NCBI GenBank assembly: GCA_944351345.1
Contig: CALVPO010000001.1
Coordinates: 1 to 29,451, forward strand
DNA: 29,451 nucleotides
Direction: 5' to 3'
Source of the DNA: an uncultured Bacilli bacterium
Lineage (GTDB): Bacteria > Bacillota_I > Bacilli_A > RF39 > UBA660
The notes below the pieces were generated by a model that saw nothing but the letters and a program-made list of their open reading frames with translations, made no database searches and had not been told where the DNA came from. The first letter of the stretch is position 1. Every line of letters begins with the position of its first letter. Of this stretch, positions 3,831 through 29,437 are shown in pieces. Position numbers and translations under genes: made by a program.

Positions 3831-5798
3831 ATGAAATGGGTTAAAACTTTTTTAAAAATATTGAGTGGAGTTTTTTTGTTATTTTTAATATTTAATATAG
3901 TTTTTTATGCTTATTGTTTTATTACTCCTAAAATTTCTATTAATGAAAATCAGGCTTATTATTTGTATGATAGTGAAAATAAACTTATTTTTGATGAAAA
4001 TGAGGATTGGATAAAGTTAGAAAATATTAGTCCACATTTAGTTAATGCTACTATTTATACTGAAGATAAGCTTTTTTATAAACATTTAGGATTTGATTAT
4101 TTTAGAATATTAAAAGCTATTTTAAATAATATAAAAAGTATGTCATTATCTGAGGGAGCTTCTACTATTACGCAGCAGTATGCTAGAAATTTATTTTTAA
4201 GTTATGACAAAAATTGGGGAAGAAAGATTGATGAGGCTATACTAGCTGCAGAGTTAGAAACACATTATAGTAAAGATGAAATTTTGGAAGGTTACTTAAA
4301 CACTATTAATTATGGTGGAGTTTATGGGATAGAAAATGCTAGTTGGTATTATTTTGGTCATGGTGCTGATAGTTTAGACTTAGCTGAGGCTTCTATGCTT
4401 GCTGGTATTCCTCAATCTCCTTCTAATTATTCTCCGTTAGTAAATGAAGAACTTGCTAAAAAAAGACAAAAAACTGTTTTAAACTCTATGTATAAGAATG
4501 GAATTATTAATCATGAAGAGCTTATGTGGGCATATAATAAAAAGCTAAATTATTTAGGAAAGATGAAGCAAAGTAAATTGGAGAATGTTTTATATTTTAG
4601 AGATGCTGTTTTAGAAGAGCTAAATTATATTGATACAATTCCTAAATCATTAATTGAAACTGGTGGTCTTAAAATATATACTACATTAGATTCTAAAGCA
4701 CAAGAAGATTTAGAGAGTGCCATTAAAAATAATATGAATAAAGATAGTAAAATGCAAGTTGCTGGCATGATGATGAATCCTAAGACTGGAGGAGTTATGG
4801 CAATGATTGGTGGTACTGATTATTCAAATAGTCAGTTTAATAGGGCAATGAAATCAAAAAGACAAGTTGGCTCTATTATGAAACCTATACTTTATTATGC
4901 AGCTTTAAAAAATGGTTTTACTTCTGCTTCTACTTTTACTAGTGAAAAAACTACTTTTAATTTTTCTAATAATCAGACTTATATGCCCAGTAATTATAAT
5001 GATGTTTATGCTAATGGGCCTATTACAATGGGAGCGGCTATATCTTATTCTGATAATATATATGCTGTTAAGACTAATCTTTTTATGGGTGAAAATAATT
5101 TAGTTAATATGAGTGAGAGGCTTGGAATTAGAAGTAAATTAGATGCTGTTCCTTCTCTTGCACTTGGTACTAGTGAGATTAGTATGATGGAGATGGTTTC
5201 TGCGTATGGAATAATTGCAAATGGTGGTAATAGTATTAGAAGTCATTTTATTGAAAAAGTTGAAGATAAGGATGGTAATGTTTTGTATCAATATAGGTAT
5301 GATAGTGAGAATATTTTAGATTCAAGTTTGACTTATATTATTAGTGAAATGCTAACTTATACTTATGATAAGAGTTTTATTGATTATAATTATCCAACTT
5401 TAATTAGTTTACTTCCTAAAATTACAAATAAATATGCTATTAAAAGTGGTACTACTGATACTGATATGTGGATTATTGGATATAATAAAAATGCTGTCCT
5501 TTCTCTATGGAATGGATATGATGATAATAAAGCTATTGAAAATGGAGAAGGGGGATATCATAAAGATATTTGGATTGATACTATGGAGTCATACTTAAAA
5601 GATAATGATAATAGTTGGTATGATATGCCTGATGACGTTGTTGGAGTAATGGTAAATCCTATTAACGGTAAACTTGCTAAAGAAGGTGATAAATTATCTA
5701 AAATATTTTATTTTTTGAAAGGAACTGAACCTACGTTTAATAATAATGATTTAGAGAGTGTTTTTAAGGAAAATAATGAAAAAAAATATACAACTTAA
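3831..5798 (+). CDS. Class A bifunctional penicillin-binding protein (transglycosylase + transpeptidase), PbpG/PBP1A-like
   Basis: N-terminal TM segment; TG motifs EDKLFYKHLGFD, GASTITQQ, RKIDE; TP motifs SIMK, SDN, KSG. Confidence 0.92.
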   Translation: MKWVKTFLKILSGVFLLFLIFNIVFYAYCFITPKISINENQAYYLYDSENKLIFDENEDWIKLENISPHLVNATIYTEDKLFYKHLGFDYFRILKAILNNIKSMSLSEGASTITQQYARNLFLSYDKNWGRKIDEAILAAELETHYSKDEILEGYLNTINYGGVYGIENASWYYFGHGADSLDLAEASMLAGIPQSPSNYSPLVNEELAKKRQKTVLNSMYKNGIINHEELMWAYNKKLNYLGKMKQSKLENVLYFRDAVLEELNYIDTIPKSLIETGGLKIYTTLDSKAQEDLESAIKNNMNKDSKMQVAGMMMNPKTGGVMAMIGGTDYSNSQFNRAMKSKRQVGSIMKPILYYAALKNGFTSASTFTSEKTTFNFSNNQTYMPSNYNDVYANGPITMGAAISYSDNIYAVKTNLFMGENNLVNMSERLGIRSKLDAVPSLALGTSEISMMEMVSAYGIIANGGNSIRSHFIEKVEDKDGNVLYQYRYDSENILDSSLTYIISEMLTYTYDKSFIDYNYPTLISLLPKITNKYAIKSGTTDTDMWIIGYNKNAVLSLWNGYDDNKAIENGEGGYHKDIWIDTMESYLKDNDNSWYDMPDDVVGVMVNPINGKLAKEGDKLSKIFYFLKGTEPTFNNNDLESVFKENNEKKYTT

Positions 5799-5799
5799 A

Positions 5800-5824
5800 A
5801 GAAGTAGATTATTTTTCTACTTCT
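5800..5824. terminator. Likely bidirectional terminator between the convergent PBP and Noc-like genes
   Basis: AGAAGTAGA-TTATTTT-TCTACTTCT, a 9-bp stem overlapping the minus-strand stop codon. Confidence 0.6.
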
Positions 5825-7299
5825 ATTGTGATTTTATAATTTTCTTGATTGTCATCTTCTGTTATTTCTATGTTATACCCTAGAGCTTCTATATTTATTG
5901 CTAAATCTTTGATCATATTTACTATAGGGATAACATTTTTATGTTCTGTTTCTTGAGATAATGTTGAATCATCTGGTATATTTTCTGAATCTAAATCATC
6001 AGTTGTTTGATCAGTATCTTGTGAATTTTCGATGTTATTTGTATTTAATTCATTTACTTGAGGCTGGTTATTTATATTTTGAGGTTCTATTGGTGGAATG
6101 CTATAATCTGATATTGTGTTGTTGATTTCGTTATAAGTTGGAGTTAGATTATTTGTATTCATTGATTGTACTGATTCTTGTGGTTGTTGATTAATTAGAT
6201 TTGGTTGAATGTTTTGTGGAGATTGAATGTCTAAACTTTGATTTATAAATTGTCCTTGGGGTGTTTGCTGATTTTGTGATGTGTCTAAATTATTAGGGAT
6301 AGGAGACATTTGGTTTAACTTATAATTTATATCTTGCCCCTGATTAATAGATTGACTTGGCATTTCATTTATTGGAGACTGATTATTAAATGATGTTTGT
6401 ACATTGGGCATATTTATTGAAGAGGTTTGTGAATTAATTGGAGTTTGAATATTTTGGGTTAAATTTATTGGCTCTTCGTGTGAAGTATCGGTTAAATCTA
6501 TAAATGATGCTGGGGTAGGGGCTATATTATTATTAGATGGTTGGCTTGTTATATTGTTTGGAATATTTATATTTCCAATCCCTGTATTTAAATTCATATT
6601 TGTTGGTTCATCTTCTAATGATGGGAAAAATCTTCTTCCAAAGGCTGGTTCTGATTGAGACATATTCTGCTCTAGTGTTGATTGTTGTTGATTATTTGTA
6701 TTTATTTGATTATTGTTTACGAATTGATTATTATTCATATTAAATTCATTCCTTTCTTTTTTATCTAGTTCAGATAAATTAATAATATCATTATTGATAA
6801 AATTTGGCATAGAACTAGTTGAAACATCATTTTGGTTATCGAATAGTTTGGGAGGCTCTTTTTTTCGTTCTTCTTTTACTAAATTTAATTTTGCTTCAAT
6901 TCTATCTAAAGGAATTCCTAGATTTATATTTAATTTTTCTTTAGTTATATTTTGATATTCTATTGCTTTTTCGTATAAATAGCCTTCTTCTTTTCCAGTT
7001 AATTCTTTTCTTTGAACATTATCAGATATTATTAGATTTATTGCTTTTGCATCATCTATATCCAGTATTATAACTGGTATTTTTTCTATTCTTAATATTC
7101 TAGCAGCATTATATCTTCTATTTCCCAGAATTATTTCATATTGAATTCCTTTAGGTCTTACTATTAATGGTATAATTATACCATTATTTTTAATGGAATT
7201 AGTAAGATTTTCTAAACTAGTTTTTGTTTCTTCTATGTGTGGTTGAAACTCTCCTGGGATAAGTTCATTTAAGTTGATATACTTAATAGAATTATCCAT
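5809..7299 (-). CDS. ParB/Noc-family protein with long N/Q/P-rich low-complexity insert
   Basis: ParB N-terminal domain (GIIIPLIVRP, LGNRRYNAA, DNVQRKEL), HTH-like segment, ~300 aa low complexity, and C-terminal VNMIKDLAINIEALGY...YKITIEVEK resembling the Noc C-terminal domain; lies at the noc position downstream of rsmG. Confidence 0.8.
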   Translation of the reverse strand: MDNSIKYINLNELIPGEFQPHIEETKTSLENLTNSIKNNGIIIPLIVRPKGIQYEIILGNRRYNAARILRIEKIPVIILDIDDAKAINLIISDNVQRKELTGKEEGYLYEKAIEYQNITKEKLNINLGIPLDRIEAKLNLVKEERKKEPPKLFDNQNDVSTSSMPNFINNDIINLSELDKKERNEFNMNNNQFVNNNQINTNNQQQSTLEQNMSQSEPAFGRRFFPSLEDEPTNMNLNTGIGNINIPNNITSQPSNNNIAPTPASFIDLTDTSHEEPINLTQNIQTPINSQTSSINMPNVQTSFNNQSPINEMPSQSINQGQDINYKLNQMSPIPNNLDTSQNQQTPQGQFINQSLDIQSPQNIQPNLINQQPQESVQSMNTNNLTPTYNEINNTISDYSIPPIEPQNINNQPQVNELNTNNIENSQDTDQTTDDLDSENIPDDSTLSQETEHKNVIPIVNMIKDLAINIEALGYNIEITEDDNQENYKITIEVEK

Positions 7300-18194: not shown

Positions 18195-18368
18195 ATTTCC
18201 ACATAATACTACACGTTGAAAAAAAGTTTTCCACAGTATGTATTTTTTTACTGTTGTGGAAAATTGTGGAAAAGTTCGTTAAATGCTTAAAAATAAAGAT
18301 ATATTGCTGTTGATAGTGTTGTGGAAAAGTATGTGTTTTATTAATTTTATTTTTTGTACTTTTCCACA
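18195..18368. promoter_or_regulatory. oriC DnaA-box cluster upstream of dnaA
   Basis: ATTTCCACA 18195; TTTTCCACA 18227 and 18360; TGTGGAAAA 18255, 18265, 18320. Confidence 0.88.
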
Positions 18369-18455
18369 GACTATTTTTTTGTTACTTTATAATGAAATTT
18401 TTACACTTTTATTTTTTTTATGATAAAATTATTTTATGTGTTGGGAGGTAATGAC

Positions 18456-19850
18456 ATGAATGTTGATATTTTATGGGAAAATTTTCTGGATAAAATAAAA
18501 GAAAATATTTCATCTTTATCTTATGAAACTTGGTTTAAAGATACTAAATTGGTTTCTTTAAGAGATAATGTTGCTATTATTATTGTCCCGATGCCTTTTC
18601 ATAAAAAGCATTTAGTTGAAAATTATAGTAGTATTATTGAAAATACATTTACATCTTTAACTGATACTAAATTTTCATTTAGATTTCTCTTAGAAGAAGA
18701 GTGGTTAGAAGAGAAGGATAATTTTAATGATAAAAAAATAACTCTACCACAAAATATTCCTAATAATAACATTGAGCAAAGGGTTTCTACTCAATCTGCT
18801 ATTGATGCTAATCTAAATAAAGATTATGTATTTAGTACTTTTATTGTAGGAAATTCTAATAGATTTGCTTATACTGCATCAATGGCAGTAGCTGAAAAGC
18901 CTGGAAAAGCATATAATCCACTTTTTCTTTATGGTAAAAGTGGATTAGGTAAAACTCATCTAATGCATTCTATTGGTAATTATATTATTAAGAATTCCAA
19001 CTTAAAAGTTTTGTATATTTCTAGCGATAAATTTGTTAATGATTTTATTAATGCAGTTAGAAGTAATGATAAAAATAATTTTGACAAAATTGATGTATTT
19101 AAAAATAAGTATAGAAATATAGATGTTTTAATGATTGATGATATACAATTTCTAGGAAATGCTACTAAGGGACAAGAAGAGTTTTTTCATACATTTAATG
19201 AACTTTACAATGAAAATAAACAAATTGTTATAGCCTCTGATAGATCTGTTGATGATTTAAAAATGTTAGAAAACAGATTATTAACTAGATTTAATTGGGG
19301 ACTTACAGCAAATATTACTCCACCTGATTTTGATTTAAGGATGGATATTATAAAGAAAAAAATTTCTCATCAAGAATCTGCTAAAGATATCCCTATTGAG
19401 GTTATTGAGTATATAGCAAATAATTTTGCATCTGATGTTAGGCAATTAGAAGGAGCAATTACTCGAGTATTTGCTTATGCTTTAATGATGAATAAGGGTG
19501 TTGTTGATTTGGATACTGCTGTTGATGCTTTAAAAGATCAATTGACAGATAGAAGTGTTTATAAAAACGACATTCATAGAATTCAAACTGTTGTATGTGA
19601 TTATTTTAAAATTACAATTGATGATATAAAAGGTAAAAAAAGAAGTCAAAATATAAATTATCCTAGGCAGGTGGCTATATATTTATGTAGAACTATGGCT
19701 AATGAATCATTTCCTAAAATAGGAACTCATTTTGGAGGTAGAGATCATTCTACTATAATGAGTTCTTATAGAAAAATTGAGAAAGATTTAAAAACAAATG
19801 AACAATTAAAAATTGTTATAAAAGAATTAAAACAAATGTTATCCACATAG
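18456..19850 (+). CDS. dnaA: Chromosomal replication initiator DnaA
   Basis: YNPLFLYGKSGLGKTHL, DVLMIDDIQF, RQLEGA, FGGRDHST. Start moved to ATG 18456 behind GGGAGG. Confidence 0.98.
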   Translation: MNVDILWENFLDKIKENISSLSYETWFKDTKLVSLRDNVAIIIVPMPFHKKHLVENYSSIIENTFTSLTDTKFSFRFLLEEEWLEEKDNFNDKKITLPQNIPNNNIEQRVSTQSAIDANLNKDYVFSTFIVGNSNRFAYTASMAVAEKPGKAYNPLFLYGKSGLGKTHLMHSIGNYIIKNSNLKVLYISSDKFVNDFINAVRSNDKNNFDKIDVFKNKYRNIDVLMIDDIQFLGNATKGQEEFFHTFNELYNENKQIVIASDRSVDDLKMLENRLLTRFNWGLTANITPPDFDLRMDIIKKKISHQESAKDIPIEVIEYIANNFASDVRQLEGAITRVFAYALMMNKGVVDLDTAVDALKDQLTDRSVYKNDIHRIQTVVCDYFKITIDDIKGKKRSQNINYPRQVAIYLCRTMANESFPKIGTHFGGRDHSTIMSSYRKIEKDLKTNEQLKIVIKELKQMLST

Positions 19851-19970
19851 AGTTGTGGAAAAATTAATTTTTTTCCACAGTAGTTGTGGAAAAAATATCG
19901 TTGAAAAACAAAAAGAAAATAAAGTTTTCCACAATATCCACAGCATAATAATAAATAAAATAAATAATAA
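19839..19970. promoter_or_regulatory. oriC dnaA-dnaN region: DnaA boxes plus AT-rich unwinding element
   Basis: TTATCCACA 19839, TGTGGAAAA 19854 and 19885, TTTTCCACA 19871 and 19925, ATATCCACA 19934, then GC and ATAATAATAAATAAAATAAATAATAA. Confidence 0.88.
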
Positions 19971-19987
19971 GAAAGAGGGAATAGAAA

Positions 19988-24859: not shown

Positions 24860-27313
24860 ATGCAAGATGAGTTAAAAGATAGAAAAGTCTCTGTTGATAT
24901 AGTTAGTGAAATGAAAAAATCTTTTCTTGATTATTCAATGAGTGTTATAGTTGCTAGGGCTATTCCCGATGTAAAAGATGGTTTGAAGCCTGTTCATAGA
25001 AGAATACTTTATACTTTGTATGAGGAAGGGATGACACCAGATAAGAAATATCAGAAGAGTGCAAATGCAGTTGGTGCTGTTATGGGTCATTATCATCCAC
25101 ATGGTGATTCTGCTATTTATGATACGATGGTTCGTATGGCGCAAGATTTTACTTATAGACATTGTTTAGTTGATGGACATGGAAATTTTGGTTCTATTGA
25201 TGGAGATGGAGCTGCTGCTAGTAGATATACTGAGGCACGACTTGCTAAAATTTCTATGGAAATGCTTAGAGATTTGAACAAGGATACGGTAGATTTTACT
25301 AAAAATTATGATGAGCAAAGAGAAGAACCTGTTGTTTTACCTAGTAGATTTCCGAATATTTTGGTAAATGGTAATATGGGAATTGCTGTTGGTATGGCTA
25401 CTAATATACCTCCTCATAATTTAGGTGAAGTTATTGATGCTTGTATTGCTTATATTGATAATAGGGATATAACTGTTATGGAACTTATGGAATATATAAA
25501 AGGTCCTGACTTTCCTACTGCAGGTGTTATTTTAGGAAACAGTGGTATAAAAAGGGCTTTTGAGACTGGTAGAGGCACTATTACTATTAGAGGGATGGCT
25601 CAGATTGAGGAGCATCATGGTAAGGAGAGAATAATTATTACTGAATTACCATATCAAGTTAATAAGAAATCATTGATTACTAGAATAGGAGAATTAGTTA
25701 GAGATAAGGTAATAGATGGAATTTCTAATCTTAGTGATGAATCCGCTTTAGAAGGAATTAAGATTGTTATTGATGTAAAAAAGGAAGCTAATGCTAATAT
25801 TGTTTTGAATAATTTATATAAACATACTCAGTTGCAGACTTCATATGGTATTAATTTTTTAATGCTTGTAGATGGTAGTCCGAGAACTATTGGTTTAAGG
25901 GAAATATTAGAGAAATATATTGATCATCAGAGAAATGTTATTTATAGAAGATGTCAATTTGAATTGAAAAAATATAGGGCTAGGTTACATATATTAGAAG
26001 GTTTGAAGATTGCTCTTGATAATATTGATAGAGTTATTAAAATTATTAGAGAATCAGAAACTGATGAAATTGCTCAATCTGGTTTAATGTCTGAATTTGG
26101 ATTGACTGAAGCTCAGTCACAAGCTATTTTAGAGATGAGGCTTAAGAGACTTACAGGTTTAGAAAAAGCTAAAATTGAGGATGAAATAGATGAATTATTG
26201 AAGCTTATTAAGGAGTTAGAAGAAATTGTTGCTAGTGAGGCTAAAATATTGGAAGTTATTAAAAAGGAAATGCTTGAAATAAAGGAAAAATATGCTGATG
26301 AGCGTAGAACACATATTGATATGACAGCTATTGATTATATTGAGGATGAATCTTTAATACCTGTTGAAAACATTGTTTTGACATTAACTCATAAGGGTTA
26401 TATAAAGAGGCTACCTGTGGATACTTATAAAATTCAAAATCGTGGTGGAGTTGGTGTTAAAGGTATGGCAACTAATGAAGAGGATTTTGTTGAACATGTT
26501 ATTAATGCTACTTCACATGATTATATTTTGTTTTTCACTAGTAAAGGTCGTGTATTTAGAGTAAAAGGTTATGAAGTACCAGAATTTTCTAGACAATCGA
26601 AAGGTTTACCTTTAGTTAATTTATTGAATTTTGATAAGAATGAATTTGTCACTTCATTGTTGAAAACTTCAAATTCAGATGATTCTAAGTACTTAGTATT
26701 TGCTACTAAAATGGGATTGATAAAGAGGACTGATATTAGAGAATTTGATAGTATTAGGAATAATGGGAAAAAGGCTATTACTTTAAAAGATGATGATGAA
26801 TTGATTTCTGTTAAGAAAACTACTGGTGATAATGAAATTTTAATGGCTTCTTCTAATGGTAGAATGGTTAGATTTTCTGAGAATGTTGTTAGAATAATGG
26901 GGCGTAATGCTTCAGGTGTTAAAGGAATTGATTTAAATGGTAGTACTTTAGTTGGTATGGAAGTTGTTGAAAATGGACAAGATGTATTTGTTATTACTAA
27001 GAATGGTTATGGAAAGAAAACTCCTGTTGGTGAGTATAGGGTAACTAATAGAGGTGGAAAAGGTGTTAAAACTTTAAATATTACTGAAAAAAATGGTGAT
27101 ATTGTGGCTTTTAAAACTATGTCTGGTGATAATAAAGATTTAATGATTGTTACTAATGAGGGTATTATTATTAGAATTAATATTAATCAAATTTCTACTA
27201 TGAGTAGAGTTACTCAAGGAGTAAGATTAATTCATTTGAGAGAAGGTCAATTTGTTAGTACTGTTGCTATTATTGATGAAGTAATTGAGGATGTTAAGTC
27301 TAGTGATAATTAA
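24860..27313 (+). CDS. gyrA: DNA gyrase subunit A
   Basis: DGLKPVHRR, YHPHGDSA, catalytic RYTE, GyrA-box QNRGGVG, beta-pinwheel repeats. Confidence 0.97.
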   Translation: MQDELKDRKVSVDIVSEMKKSFLDYSMSVIVARAIPDVKDGLKPVHRRILYTLYEEGMTPDKKYQKSANAVGAVMGHYHPHGDSAIYDTMVRMAQDFTYRHCLVDGHGNFGSIDGDGAAASRYTEARLAKISMEMLRDLNKDTVDFTKNYDEQREEPVVLPSRFPNILVNGNMGIAVGMATNIPPHNLGEVIDACIAYIDNRDITVMELMEYIKGPDFPTAGVILGNSGIKRAFETGRGTITIRGMAQIEEHHGKERIIITELPYQVNKKSLITRIGELVRDKVIDGISNLSDESALEGIKIVIDVKKEANANIVLNNLYKHTQLQTSYGINFLMLVDGSPRTIGLREILEKYIDHQRNVIYRRCQFELKKYRARLHILEGLKIALDNIDRVIKIIRESETDEIAQSGLMSEFGLTEAQSQAILEMRLKRLTGLEKAKIEDEIDELLKLIKELEEIVASEAKILEVIKKEMLEIKEKYADERRTHIDMTAIDYIEDESLIPVENIVLTLTHKGYIKRLPVDTYKIQNRGGVGVKGMATNEEDFVEHVINATSHDYILFFTSKGRVFRVKGYEVPEFSRQSKGLPLVNLLNFDKNEFVTSLLKTSNSDDSKYLVFATKMGLIKRTDIREFDSIRNNGKKAITLKDDDELISVKKTTGDNEILMASSNGRMVRFSENVVRIMGRNASGVKGIDLNGSTLVGMEVVENGQDVFVITKNGYGKKTPVGEYRVTNRGGKGVKTLNITEKNGDIVAFKTMSGDNKDLMIVTNEGIIIRININQISTMSRVTQGVRLIHLREGQFVSTVAIIDEVIEDVKSSDN

Positions 27314-27339
27314 AGTCTTAATTTGTAAAGTTGTTTTAT

Positions 27340-27374
27340 GTACACATATATAAATATGTGTACTTTTATTTTTT
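27340..27374 (+). terminator. Intrinsic terminator after gyrA
   Basis: GTACACATAT-ATAA-ATATGTGTAC, 10-bp stem followed by TTTTATTTTTT. Confidence 0.8.
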
Positions 27375-27428
27375 CTATTTTTCTGTGGAAAACTATTTTT
27401 ACATTCAGATATTTATAAAATATTTTTA

Positions 27429-27444
27429 TGTTCCACGTGAAACA
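27429..27444. promoter_or_regulatory. parS site 1
   Basis: TGTTCCACGTGAAACA matches the Bacillus parS consensus; ATTTCCACA follows at 27448. Confidence 0.9.
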
Positions 27445-27565
27445 TAGATTTCCACAATTTCTTTTTTTATTTAACAAAAGGGTGGTTAGTATTTGTTTAT
27501 AAAATATTATGCAATTGATGCTTGTTAATGTAATTTTGTTAAATTATTTTTATGTATTCTTTATA

Positions 27566-27581
27566 TGTTTCACGTGGAACA
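27566..27581. promoter_or_regulatory. parS site 2
   Basis: TGTTTCACGTGGAACA; TTTTCCACA follows at 27584. Confidence 0.9.
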
Positions 27582-27892
27582 TGTTTTCCACATCTATTAA
27601 TTTATAACTATATTATTTATAAAGGTTATTTTGAAATTTTTATTATTTCGTTAATTAAGAATGAAAGATATTTATAATCTGTTGAAATTAAAATTTGTAG
27701 TTTAATAAAGAAAAATTTAACTATTCTTATAATTCTATTAAATTTATATTGTTTTATTAATAATCAGTTTAATAGAATTTCTAATACTATAATTTTATTT
27801 TTTATTGTTAATAAAAGTTATTTATTAATATATTTGTTTGATAATGTTTGATGTGAAAATTATAATATATTTATTTTATAAGATTATTTTTA

Positions 27893-27908
27893 TGTTTCAC
27901 GTGAAACA
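27893..27908. promoter_or_regulatory. parS site 3
   Basis: Perfect palindrome TGTTTCACGTGAAACA; ATTTCCACA follows at 27912. Confidence 0.92.
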
Positions 27909-27924
27909 TAGATTTCCACAGGTT

Positions 27925-28270
27925 GTTTAAATTACAAAATAATGCTAATAAAATATTTAATGGAAAAATTGCATATAGATTTAGATAATTAATTGGACAT
28001 GGTTGTTAAGCAAGAAATATTCAAATAATAAAAGAAAGCATTTCAAGAGAGTATGTTCATATGTGGTCTTATGCCCTCTAAATATTTCTGTAGCACAAAT
28101 GAATGATGCAATATTTGAAAGGAAGAAGTTCTAAAAAATTAGAAGGAGAGTTTCTACTATTAAAGAAAAAAGTTTGTGGACAATATATATGGGCTGTTGA
28201 ATTTTTTTGTAGAACTGTTGGACAATTACTGATGAAATTATAAAATTATATATAGAAAAACAAACTGATA
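27925..28270 (+). pseudogene. Decayed IS200/IS605-family TnpA (Y1 HUH transposase)
   Basis: Pieces in shifting frames: GKIAYRFR*LIGHGC*ARNIQIIKESISREYVHM, then MQYLKGRSSKKLEGEF...GQYIWAVEFFCRTVG, then TDEIIKLYIEKQ. These match the HUH, LKGRSS, W..GYF..TVG and YIxxQ motifs of TnpA. Confidence 0.8.
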
Positions 28271-28430
28271 ATAAAAAAGAAGTTTTAGATATGGATTTTT
28301 GGATTTTAAACAACTCTTGTGTTTTTAGTGCATGGTGATTGATAATAATTAATTATTTATCTATAGTTGAAATAATTTATAGTTATATATGATATGTAGC
28401 TATCACGGTTAATTTATAAAAAAAATTTTA

Positions 28431-28446
28431 TGTTCCACGTGAAACA
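28431..28446. promoter_or_regulatory. parS site 4
   Basis: TGTTCCACGTGAAACA; TTTTCCACA follows at 28451. Confidence 0.9.
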
Positions 28447-28881
28447 TAAGTTTTCCACAGTTAAATATTTTTGCTTTTTTTGGAAAAAATATGTATGTAT
28501 ATTTATTTATATATTTATAATATTAATAATGTTTTAAAATAGGTGATATGTATAAAAAATATAAACTAGTAGAATATAGTTAGAATACTATACTTTTTTA
28601 CAAGTTTTATTATTTAAAATGTTCTTAAAATTTGTTAATATTTTTATATTTTACTTTGATAATAATGTTGAAGAAAAAATTTAATTATTATTTCATTAAA
28701 AGATTAATAGAAGAATAGAAGATGTTTATAAATTTTTTTGATAATGGGTTTGTAGAGTGTAGTGTTAGTATGAATTTTTTTTATTGAATAGTTAAAAGTT
28801 ATGTTATTAATTAATATTTTGAGAACTATTTTATTGTAGATAATTTATTTTTGTATAACTATTTATTTATAATAAAATTTA

Positions 28882-28897
28882 TGTTTCACGTGAAACA
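28882..28897. promoter_or_regulatory. parS site 5
   Basis: Perfect palindrome TGTTTCACGTGAAACA; TTTTCCACA follows at 28901. Confidence 0.92.
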
Positions 28898-28998
28898 TTG
28901 TTTTCCACATATAGTAAAATAGTTATTTTTTTTATTACTATGTGTAATTTATTTTTATAAATTTAATAATAATTTGGTTTTGGTTTTTAATATTTATA

Positions 28999-29014
28999 TG
29001 TTTCACGTGGAACA
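28999..29014. promoter_or_regulatory. parS site 6
   Basis: TGTTTCACGTGGAACA; no abutting box, but a reverse box TGTGGAAAA lies at 29040. Confidence 0.9.
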
Positions 29015-29058
29015 AGGATTTAGTATCTATTATTTTTCTTGTGGAAAACTATTTTTCC

Positions 29059-29087
29059 TTGATTTTTTTTTTAGTTTATTGTATAAT
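29059..29087 (+). promoter_or_regulatory. Sigma-A promoter of the SRP RNA
   Basis: TTGATT-17-TATAAT; predicted +1 near 29094 coincides with the base of the RNA stem. Confidence 0.7.
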
Positions 29088-29093
29088 CTTATT

Positions 29094-29167
29094 GATGCAA
29101 CAGTATTATTTTGGAACCAAGTCAGAATCGGAAGATAGCAGCTTTAACAATTTATACTGTGTGCATC
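29094..29167 (+). ncRNA. ffs: Signal recognition particle RNA, small (4.5S-type)
   Basis: Core GAACC-AAG-TCAGA-ATC-GGAA-GAT-AGCAGC; ends pair (GATGCA/TGCATC, ACAGTAT/ATACTGT); followed by a T tract; directly upstream of dnaX, like scr in Bacillus. Confidence 0.88.
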
Positions 29168-29233
29168 TTTTTTTATTTTTGTTTATTATTTTTTTACAAA
29201 CAAACGTTCTTTCTTGATTTTTTTTGATTTATG

Positions 29234-29262
29234 TTGTTAATTTTTTTGATTTATGATATAAT
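29234..29262 (+). promoter_or_regulatory. Putative dnaX promoter
   Basis: TTGTTA-17-TATAAT with an extended -10 TG. Confidence 0.55.
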
Positions 29263-29293
29263 ATTATTGATACTTGTTTAAGTAGGTGATTTT

Positions 29294-29437
29294 GTGGGAG
29301 GATATTTAGCTTTATATAGAAAATATAGGCCTAATAATTTTAATGATTTAGTTGGGCAGAGTGGTGTTTCTACTATAATTAAAAATGAAATTTTAAATAA
29401 TAAAATTGCACATGAATCTTTCTCTTCTCTAGCCTGA
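29294..29437 (+). CDS. dnaX: DNA polymerase III gamma/tau, N-terminal 40 codons only, then unrelated sequence and TGA
   Basis: GTG start; YLALYRKYRPNNFNDLVGQ...KIAH is the DnaX N-terminus, but the expected AYLFSGPRGTGKT is replaced by ESFSSLA*. Confidence 0.8.
   Translation: MGGYLALYRKYRPNNFNDLVGQSGVSTIIKNEILNNKIAHESFSSLA

Follow-up and report, generated by a model that had tools for sequence, protein, structure and literature searches.

The non-coding gap between gyrA and ffs, the gene for the signal recognition particle (SRP) RNA, holds an array of six parS sites in an uncultured Bacilli bacterium, and five of these sites are joined within 4 nucleotides (nt) to a 9-mer that matches the binding site (box) of the replication initiator DnaA. 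The array lies in a 29,451-nt stretch of DNA (GenBank assembly GCA_944351345.1, contig CALVPO010000001.1, positions 1 to 29,451), hereafter called the window, and was first pointed out in a first-pass annotation drawn up from the letters of the window. At the level of sequence it is secure that this gap is the chromosome's only ParB-loading array and its centromere. Comparisons among relatives lend good support to the view that the 9-mers are DnaA sites held beside parS by selection. We favor, at a probability of roughly one in two, a reading in which the composite array is a centromere of dual ParB/DnaA sites, with boxes that would be under selection for a tethering or sink function coupling replication initiation to chromosome segregation.

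The gap spans 1.6 kb from the gyrA terminator to the ffs promoter, the gyrA stop codon being at 27313. It contains six exact matches to TGTTNCACGTGNAACA, corresponding to the 16-bp palindrome TGTTNCACGTGAAACA of chromosomal ParABS centromeres, where 0.02 matches are expected per shuffle (positions in Table 1). Start-to-start distances between neighboring sites are 137, 327, 538, 451 and 117 nt. On the same strand, (T/A)TTTCCACA comes after all but one of these sites, beyond a spacer of 2-4 nt, the box being TTTTCCACA in three units and ATTTCCACA in the other two. The sixth parS belongs to a diverged copy of the unit, still in register, in which the decayed box reads ATTTAGTAT. Over 36 nt (27421-27456 and 27885-27920), units 1 and 3 have a single mismatch, located at the free N position of parS. 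The first-pass annotation had reported the positions of the six palindromes, their irregular spacing of 117-538 bp, the uniformly oriented 9-mer beside five of them and the near-identity of units 1 and 3, and all four observations were reproduced by our measurements. The four box variants that occur in this genome are found 89 times on both strands of 1.41 Mb, with 12 of these occurrences in the two clusters that flank dnaA, and such a low frequency excludes five chance adjacencies at 4 nt or less.

Beyond these six sites, no other perfect parS was found in the 1.41-Mb assembly (164 contigs). The array is located in the right replichore at a distance of 7.5-9.1 kb from the cluster of DnaA boxes between dnaA and dnaN, as is typical of the origin-proximal position of a ParABS centromere and in agreement with the separation of about 8 kb first noted; GC skew turns positive near 16 kb. 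Both cognate partition proteins are encoded, with canonical soj and spo0J genes residing on a separate contig, C30 (TIGR00180, 198 bits; Pfam ParB_N and HTH_ParB; AAA_31 for Soj), the end of which cuts off the C-terminus of ParB. Given that the window holds the only perfect parS of the assembly, close to the origin of a chromosome that encodes Soj and Spo0J, the proposal that this locus is the centromere stands.

The same arrangement recurs widely among relatives. Perfect parS sites are present in 16 of the 17 other genomes of the genus, always gathered in one array, and the 58%-complete genome G001 shows none. Within the genus, every array whose contig extends far enough is flanked by gyrA on one side and by ffs-dnaX on the other, and the same position is used in other genera of the family. 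With one genome examined per genus, 88 of 100 genera in the family carry perfect parS, usually as 2-10 clustered copies and often as regular tandem repeats. Because of this shared gyrA-ffs-dnaX synteny and the prevalence of parS, we identify the array as an old, family-wide centromere of uncultured Bacilli with small genomes that live in the gut.

Some further observations concern the genes for the partition proteins. In five relatives (G003 and G017, contig C5 of each; G011 and G015, contig C6; G006, contig C4) soj-spo0J is found about 25-35 kb downstream of the array and not beside rsmG. In the window, rsmG is followed by an IS30-like gene and then by a gene for a 496-aa protein that has a ParB_N domain only (5809-7299).

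The assignment of the 9-mers to DnaA is based in part on the origin of the same chromosome. In the window, genes on the rnpA side are on the - strand, and dnaA (18420-19850), dnaN, a ComK homologue, recF, gyrB and gyrA are on the + strand. The two clusters of boxes that flank dnaA, which we designate oriC parts 1 and 2, are composed of nine copies of TTTTCCACA and one copy each of ATTTCCACA, TTATCCACA and ATATCCACA, bearing out the earlier remark that the 9-mer beside parS also dominates both oriC clusters. The parS-adjoining 9-mers conform to the DnaA box TTWTNCACA and to the genome's own oriC 9-mers, and the DnaA protein of this genome has a standard domain IV.

A short segment of oriC part 2 and its right flank (19925-19975) carries abutting, tandem + strand boxes TTTTCCACA and ATATCCACA, then GC and a TAA-rich run just before dnaN, and it is likely to be the DnaA-trio or unwinding element of oriC. 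Tandem boxes followed by a TAA-rich tract form the usual unwinding module of Firmicutes. We also considered whether the parS array might be a second origin and rejected this idea, since its boxes are isolated and lie beyond gyrA, and the tandem boxes with an AT-rich tract are found instead at 19925-19975. A further cluster of five DnaA boxes of the ATATCCACA type within about 150 bp resides outside the origin region, on contig C55 of the genome (G000; approximately 5781-5936).

Comparative data extend the resemblance to oriC beyond this single genome. Across the family the variants adjoining parS (TTTTCCACA, ATTTCCACA, ATATCCACA and TTATCCACA) are the same four that are present at oriC. A comparison of 15 genomes for covariation between the variant beside parS and the one preferred at oriC has no power to discriminate, since every genome draws on one mixed repertoire. 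These variants drift toward the universal DnaA consensus TTATCCACA and not toward the parS half-site. Specifically, each of the 43 strict boxes and each of the 45 boxes counted beside parS has A at position 9, where the parS half-site has G, and T always occupies position 2, in contrast to the G that parS has there. The shared repertoire, the drift toward TTATCCACA and the invariant final A together favor a DnaA site over a ParB half-site.

To count adjacencies, the gaps of relatives were all oriented from gyrA to ffs, and up to one mismatch was accepted in a box. By this measure, a box is located at +2 to +9 nt from 45 of the 79 parS sites, and 13 of the 21 genomes examined bear boxes. Every one of these 45 boxes is on the ffs side of parS and on the top strand, with none in the mirror position and none inverted. 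The genomes that exhibit this geometry have 66 strict boxes in their 25 kb of gap sequence, and 43 of these boxes touch one of 52 parS sites, compared to about 0.9 expected, a contrast that overstates the independence of the units because they share ancestry. Nevertheless, the enrichment of DnaA boxes beside parS that the first-pass annotation had proposed to look for in related genomes is evident.

An alignment of four close species indicates that the boxes are also retained selectively. Their gaps cannot be aligned except at the parS-plus-box units and the ffs promoter, and eight of the nine box columns in the last unit are invariant, whereas the spacer and the downstream 9-mer are nearly random. 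This persistence of the box amid diverging spacer and surroundings argues that it is under selection. It had been suggested that a box decaying at the same rate as the flanking spacer would reveal a mere passenger of duplication, and in this clade the opposite pattern is seen. The arrays do grow by duplication, as evidenced by units 1 and 3 in the window and by repeats of about 460 bp in G013, 42 bp in G018 and about 157 bp in G321. Of the expectation that spacing and orientation would be conserved while spacers diverge, the part concerning orientation holds within the clade (45 of 45 boxes), and the part concerning spacing does not, given a range of 0-9 nt and three geometries in the family as a whole.

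The first-pass annotation also described the module as fixed, which proved too strong. In addition to the variable spacing and geometry, 7 of the 20 genomes in a tree of GyrA sequences have arrays lacking boxes, and most of the family has plain arrays. Relatives that keep parS without the 9-mer had been named in advance as evidence against the idea; they exist in these seven genomes, and yet elsewhere the box is kept by selection. On the GyrA tree the box-bearing state appears in two deep clades and is missing from G016, G005/G010, G007/G015, G009 and the outgroup G018, with G009 retaining a decayed box, AATTCCACA. This distribution needs at least five changes (at least three on well-supported branches only), and the state is no more clustered on the tree than shuffled labels would be. 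Soj is present in all 18 genomes of the genus at 88-94% identity. A connection between box loss and Soj loss was ruled out, as the boxless species also encode Soj.

Other lineages place the box differently. In a 401-genome sample of the order, the sequence TTCCACA follows parS in nine genomes from three genera, and the inverted pattern, which was intended as a control, matched 10 other genomes from six genera, all in the same gyrA-ffs gap. In g51, g99 and g140, TTTTCCACA or TTATCCACA is located 0-8 nt from parS on its gyrA side; in G331, G396 and L133 an inverted box is located 0-7 nt from parS on its ffs side; and in one further genus parS directly abuts TTATCCACA. Outside the family, the composite pattern was encountered as one isolated, chance-like match in 266 genomes of the same class. 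As judged from these genomes, within a total sample of about 500 from the family, the adjacency of box and parS is a recurrent, lineage-specific elaboration of the family-wide array, with no single geometry and no helical phasing.

Sites of the Noc type participate in some of these arrays. A 42-bp triple module in g51 consists of a Noc-type site ATTTCCCGGGAAAT, 2 nt, a DnaA box, 0-1 nt and parS. Such modules alternate with plain parS in the gyrA-ffs gaps of L061 (parS at 4915, 5537, 5873 and 6148), L062 (4877, 5474 and 6103), L065 (5240 and 5495), L071 (272) and L132. In L153 and L139, within the first 1.7 kb past gyrA, tandem repeats of about 127 bp each contain one parS and one Noc-type site separated by about 42 nt; L153 has 9 parS and 13 Noc sites in total, L139 has 8 parS and 9 Noc sites, and no DnaA boxes adjoin these parS. 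A search of the window and of the genome it belongs to for ATTTCCCGGGAAAT at no more than one mismatch yielded nothing, and matches with two or three mismatches occur there as they do in shuffled sequence.

Under the reading that we favor, each unit would be a dual site where a ParB dimer loads onto the palindrome and one DnaA molecule binds beside it through domain IV. The array would grow by duplication of whole units, with purifying selection holding the box while spacers and inter-unit DNA turn over. With a single, presumably high-affinity box on the origin-distal side of five of the six parS, at a distance of 2-4 bp, the ParB/Soj partition complex near oriC would hold a few tethered DnaA molecules. 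This arrangement could constitute a DnaA sink near the origin, duplicated within seconds of initiation, and it would bring DnaA to the place where ParB turns Soj into an inhibitor of DnaA, such that the DNA itself would couple the control of initiation to segregation. We infer the occupancy by ParB and DnaA from the sites themselves, and the role as a sink and coupling device is speculative. The suggestion in the first-pass annotation that ParB and DnaA would bind side by side or compete is likewise conjectural. The tethering and sink model would fit findings from Bacillus subtilis, where the loss of DnaA-box clusters and the loss of spo0J are synergistic via Soj, the two together restraining initiation (PMC3245932).

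Several points weigh against this reading. One box per parS at intervals of 117-538 bp is unlike the tight clusters of B. subtilis, where stable DnaA binding needs about four closely spaced boxes, on average between a few and about 20 bp apart (PMC2533591). The seven perfect or near-perfect boxes within 1.66 kb here are 28-540 bp apart and fall short of a cluster of the B. subtilis or datA type. Because the boxes are single and widely spaced, a role in titration is uncertain. Furthermore, the spacing of 0-9 nt and the variable geometry argue against a stereospecific contact between ParB and DnaA, and simultaneous binding of both proteins may be sterically impossible at spacings of 0-2 nt. Finally, several sister lineages have lost the boxes while keeping the array and a highly conserved Soj, which indicates that the module is dispensable.

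A more tentative proposal is that the gap serves as a modular docking hub, wherein a DnaA box is joined at 0-9 bp to clamp sites for ParB (and in some genera also for Noc), and DnaA gates the loading of clamps or the clamps evict or trap DnaA. If true, this hub would represent crosstalk at the level of DNA between the initiator and ParB-family clamps that depend on cytidine triphosphate (CTP), bypassing Soj.

We judge it unlikely that the arrangement exists primarily for DnaA to act on ParB, whereby DnaA bound 0-9 bp from parS would license, block or render one-sided the loading and sliding of the ParB-CTP clamp, in the manner of a roadblock. The adjacency is extremely tight and yet tolerant of geometry, as a steric effect would be. 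DNA-bound proteins are known to be a hindrance to ParB sliding (PMC8299390, PMC9242446), and in Caulobacter DnaA bound at the centromere enables segregation (PMC6399470). Set against these points, the box is origin-distal in the genus studied here and origin-proximal in g51, g99 and g140, so that spreading would not be directed the same way throughout; in the window, the parS nearest to ffs has no intact box; and ParB can bypass roadblocks by dimer-dimer recruitment (PMC9242446).

It is also rather improbable that the box is a historical by-product, either a decayed half-site of a neighboring parS or a passenger of duplication, with the adjacency itself being idle even where the gap might benefit from having DnaA boxes at some position. 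TTTTCCAC and TGTTCCAC are one base apart, a box and a parS half-site are separated by one or two substitutions, the arrays clearly expand by tandem duplication, and boxes have been lost in at least three to five lineages that kept the array. A by-product would not be expected, however, to persist within 9 nt of parS in gaps that are otherwise unalignable and in which distances between units range from 42 to more than 1000 bp. Likewise, the variants move to the DnaA consensus (TTATCCACA, ATATCCACA) and away from parS, there are three recurrent geometries, g51 exhibits a fixed spacing with a Noc site, and boxes in the mirror position are absent.

The chance is remote that the 9-mer is a third half-site for ParB, or for a ParB/Noc-like paralogue such as the 496-aa protein encoded nearby, and not a site for DnaA. 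TTTTCCAC does resemble the parS half TGTTCCAC, and ATTTCC is the start of the Noc-site half ATTTCCC. Contrary to this proposal, the 9-mers are identical to oriC boxes, their CACA always keeps its last A, they have no second half with which to form a palindrome, and this genome lacks a Noc-type site. Position 2, which is reportedly a specificity position of ParB and Noc sites, is T rather than G or A.

In the family arrays L034-L071 (e.g. unit 1 of G002, unit 1 of G011 and the units of G325), one-third of the parS sites have perfect palindromic extensions of 4-11 nt, compared to 1.7% expected, and the sequence of the extension differs in every unit. This excess suggests selection for hairpin or cruciform potential. 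Among class-level relatives, L001, L002, L005 and L027 have one or two parS immediately upstream of GGGTGG(C/T)ACCACG, a motif that resembles the conserved T-box sequence in tRNA-sensing leaders.

A role for the palindrome and the TTTT that follows it as a weak RNA terminator shielding the array from gyrA read-through, with CCACA being incidental, is very hard to credit: the first unit of G002, G011 and G017 does lie 17-27 nt past the gyrA stop codon with a palindrome extended by 9-11 nt and the box TTTT directly after it, and extensions of at least 4 nt are in excess in the family arrays, but extensions in the window are only 0-3 nt, gyrA has its own terminator at 27340-27363, none of the units in the window scores as a terminator, CCACA is conserved equally to TTTT, and the other two geometries have no T-tract after the hairpin.

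The remaining contents of the gap are few. Between units 3 and 4 lies a decayed, frameshifted remnant of an IS200-type transposase, which accounts for the longest spacing in the array (538 nt). One of its frames (28103-28240) matches Pfam Y1_Tnp (E=2.6e-6; 28 bits against a cut-off of 23), and similarity continues by eye in neighboring frames. No open reading frame of at least 80 aa is present in the gap, and the short frames are AT-rich noise apart from this remnant. The number of promoter-like sites in the gap, 25, is what chance would give (22.9 expected), and no Rfam RNA other than ffs was detected.

The array is bracketed by a 23-nt direct repeat that is 91% identical between its copies (27378-27400 and 29034-29056), each of which contains a reverse TTTTCCACA. 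With such boxes at the edges of the array, DnaA may additionally act on the expression of ffs and dnaX. A bottom-strand box 70-120 nt past the gyrA stop codon is also present in G003, G005, G007, G015 and G016, including species without composite units.

Table 1. Features of the gyrA-ffs gap, its borders and the origin region (positions in the window)
Feature	Position	Strand	Remarks
Unit 1	27429..27456	+	parS 27429-27444, 3-nt spacer, box ATTTCCACA 27448-27456
Unit 2	27566..27592	+	parS 27566-27581, 2-nt spacer, box TTTTCCACA 27584-27592
Unit 3	27893..27920	+	parS 27893-27908, 3-nt spacer, box ATTTCCACA 27912-27920; near copy of unit 1
Unit 4	28431..28459	+	parS 28431-28446, 4-nt spacer, box TTTTCCACA 28451-28459
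Unit 5	28882..28909	+	parS 28882-28897, 3-nt spacer, box TTTTCCACA 28901-28909
Unit 6	28999..29026	+	parS 28999-29014 and decayed box ATTTAGTAT; 68% identity to unit 1 in register
gyrA	24860..27313	+	817-aa open reading frame; upstream border; 60-86% identity to GyrA of relatives, all with the same gap downstream
gyrA intrinsic terminator	27340..27363	+	hairpin and T run; sole terminator-like site in 27200-29300
Consensus DnaA box TTTTCCACA, reverse	27384..27392	-	gyrA end of gap, just past terminator
IS200-type transposase remnant	27985..28290	+	decayed, frameshifted; wider bounds approximate; between units 3 and 4
Consensus DnaA box TTTTCCACA, reverse	29040..29048	-	11 nt upstream of the ffs -35 element
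ffs promoter	29059-29087	+	TTGATT, 17 nt, TATAAT; from promoter scan
ffs (SRP RNA gene)	29089-29175	+	Rfam RF00169, 49.4 bits; downstream border
oriC part 1	18195..18368		six DnaA boxes upstream of dnaA
oriC part 2	19839..19942		six DnaA boxes between dnaA and dnaN

The coordination of initiation with segregation is known mainly through protein-protein links between Soj and DnaA, and through one case, in Caulobacter, of DnaA acting at a centromere. Here the link is written repeatedly into the DNA, with parS and a DnaA box no more than one helical turn apart, in various geometries and in surroundings that have fully diverged. This pairing hints at a hard-wired connection between the start of replication and the segregation of the chromosome. 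If it alters ParB loading or DnaA availability, the unit would be a compact natural cis-element for studying or engineering the coupling of the two processes. The first-pass annotation knew of no earlier description of a fixed module of parS and DnaA box. Full-text literature searches likewise returned no description of a repeated unit with one box per parS, or of a triple module with a Noc site. The presence of DnaA at a centromere has a precedent.

That precedent is Caulobacter crescentus, where a parS cluster lies about 8 kb from the origin (PMC5815017) and DnaA binds boxes in the centromere region through domain IV, linking initiation and segregation (Mera 2014, as reviewed in PMC6399470). 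DnaA boxes within the parS region are likewise found in the window. Caulobacter belongs to another phylum, its parS are located within genes, and its centromere is not known to contain repeated units that join a single box to each parS at 0-9 bp. On chromosome II of Vibrio cholerae, the rctA/parS2 region similarly places centromere and initiator sites in adjacent zones, with mutual influence of the proteins (PMC3688505, PMC6399470), but the initiator is RctB and not DnaA, the replicon is derived from a plasmid, and there is a single site in place of a repeated array. The cisII and cisMP elements of Deinococcus radiodurans are repeat arrays near parAB that bind both DnaA and ParB and have origin-like as well as centromere-like character (PMC7671480). 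They differ in belonging to secondary replicons, in the sequences of their repeats and in acting as origins, whereas the array described here is separate from oriC.

Bacillus subtilis has an identical parS and DnaA-box consensus, concentrates both classes of site near oriC, and has one DnaA-box cluster (ywcI-vpr) that adjoins a parS (PMC2533591). In contrast to the gyrA-ffs array, its parS are dispersed over tens of kb and mostly within genes, its boxes form clusters of at least four tightly spaced copies, and it has no tandem array. Because parS, the DnaA box and the Noc site of the arrays described here match the B. subtilis consensus, the idea of a centromere built from dual sites lends itself to direct tests with proteins and strains of B. 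subtilis, although the sequences come from uncultured organisms.

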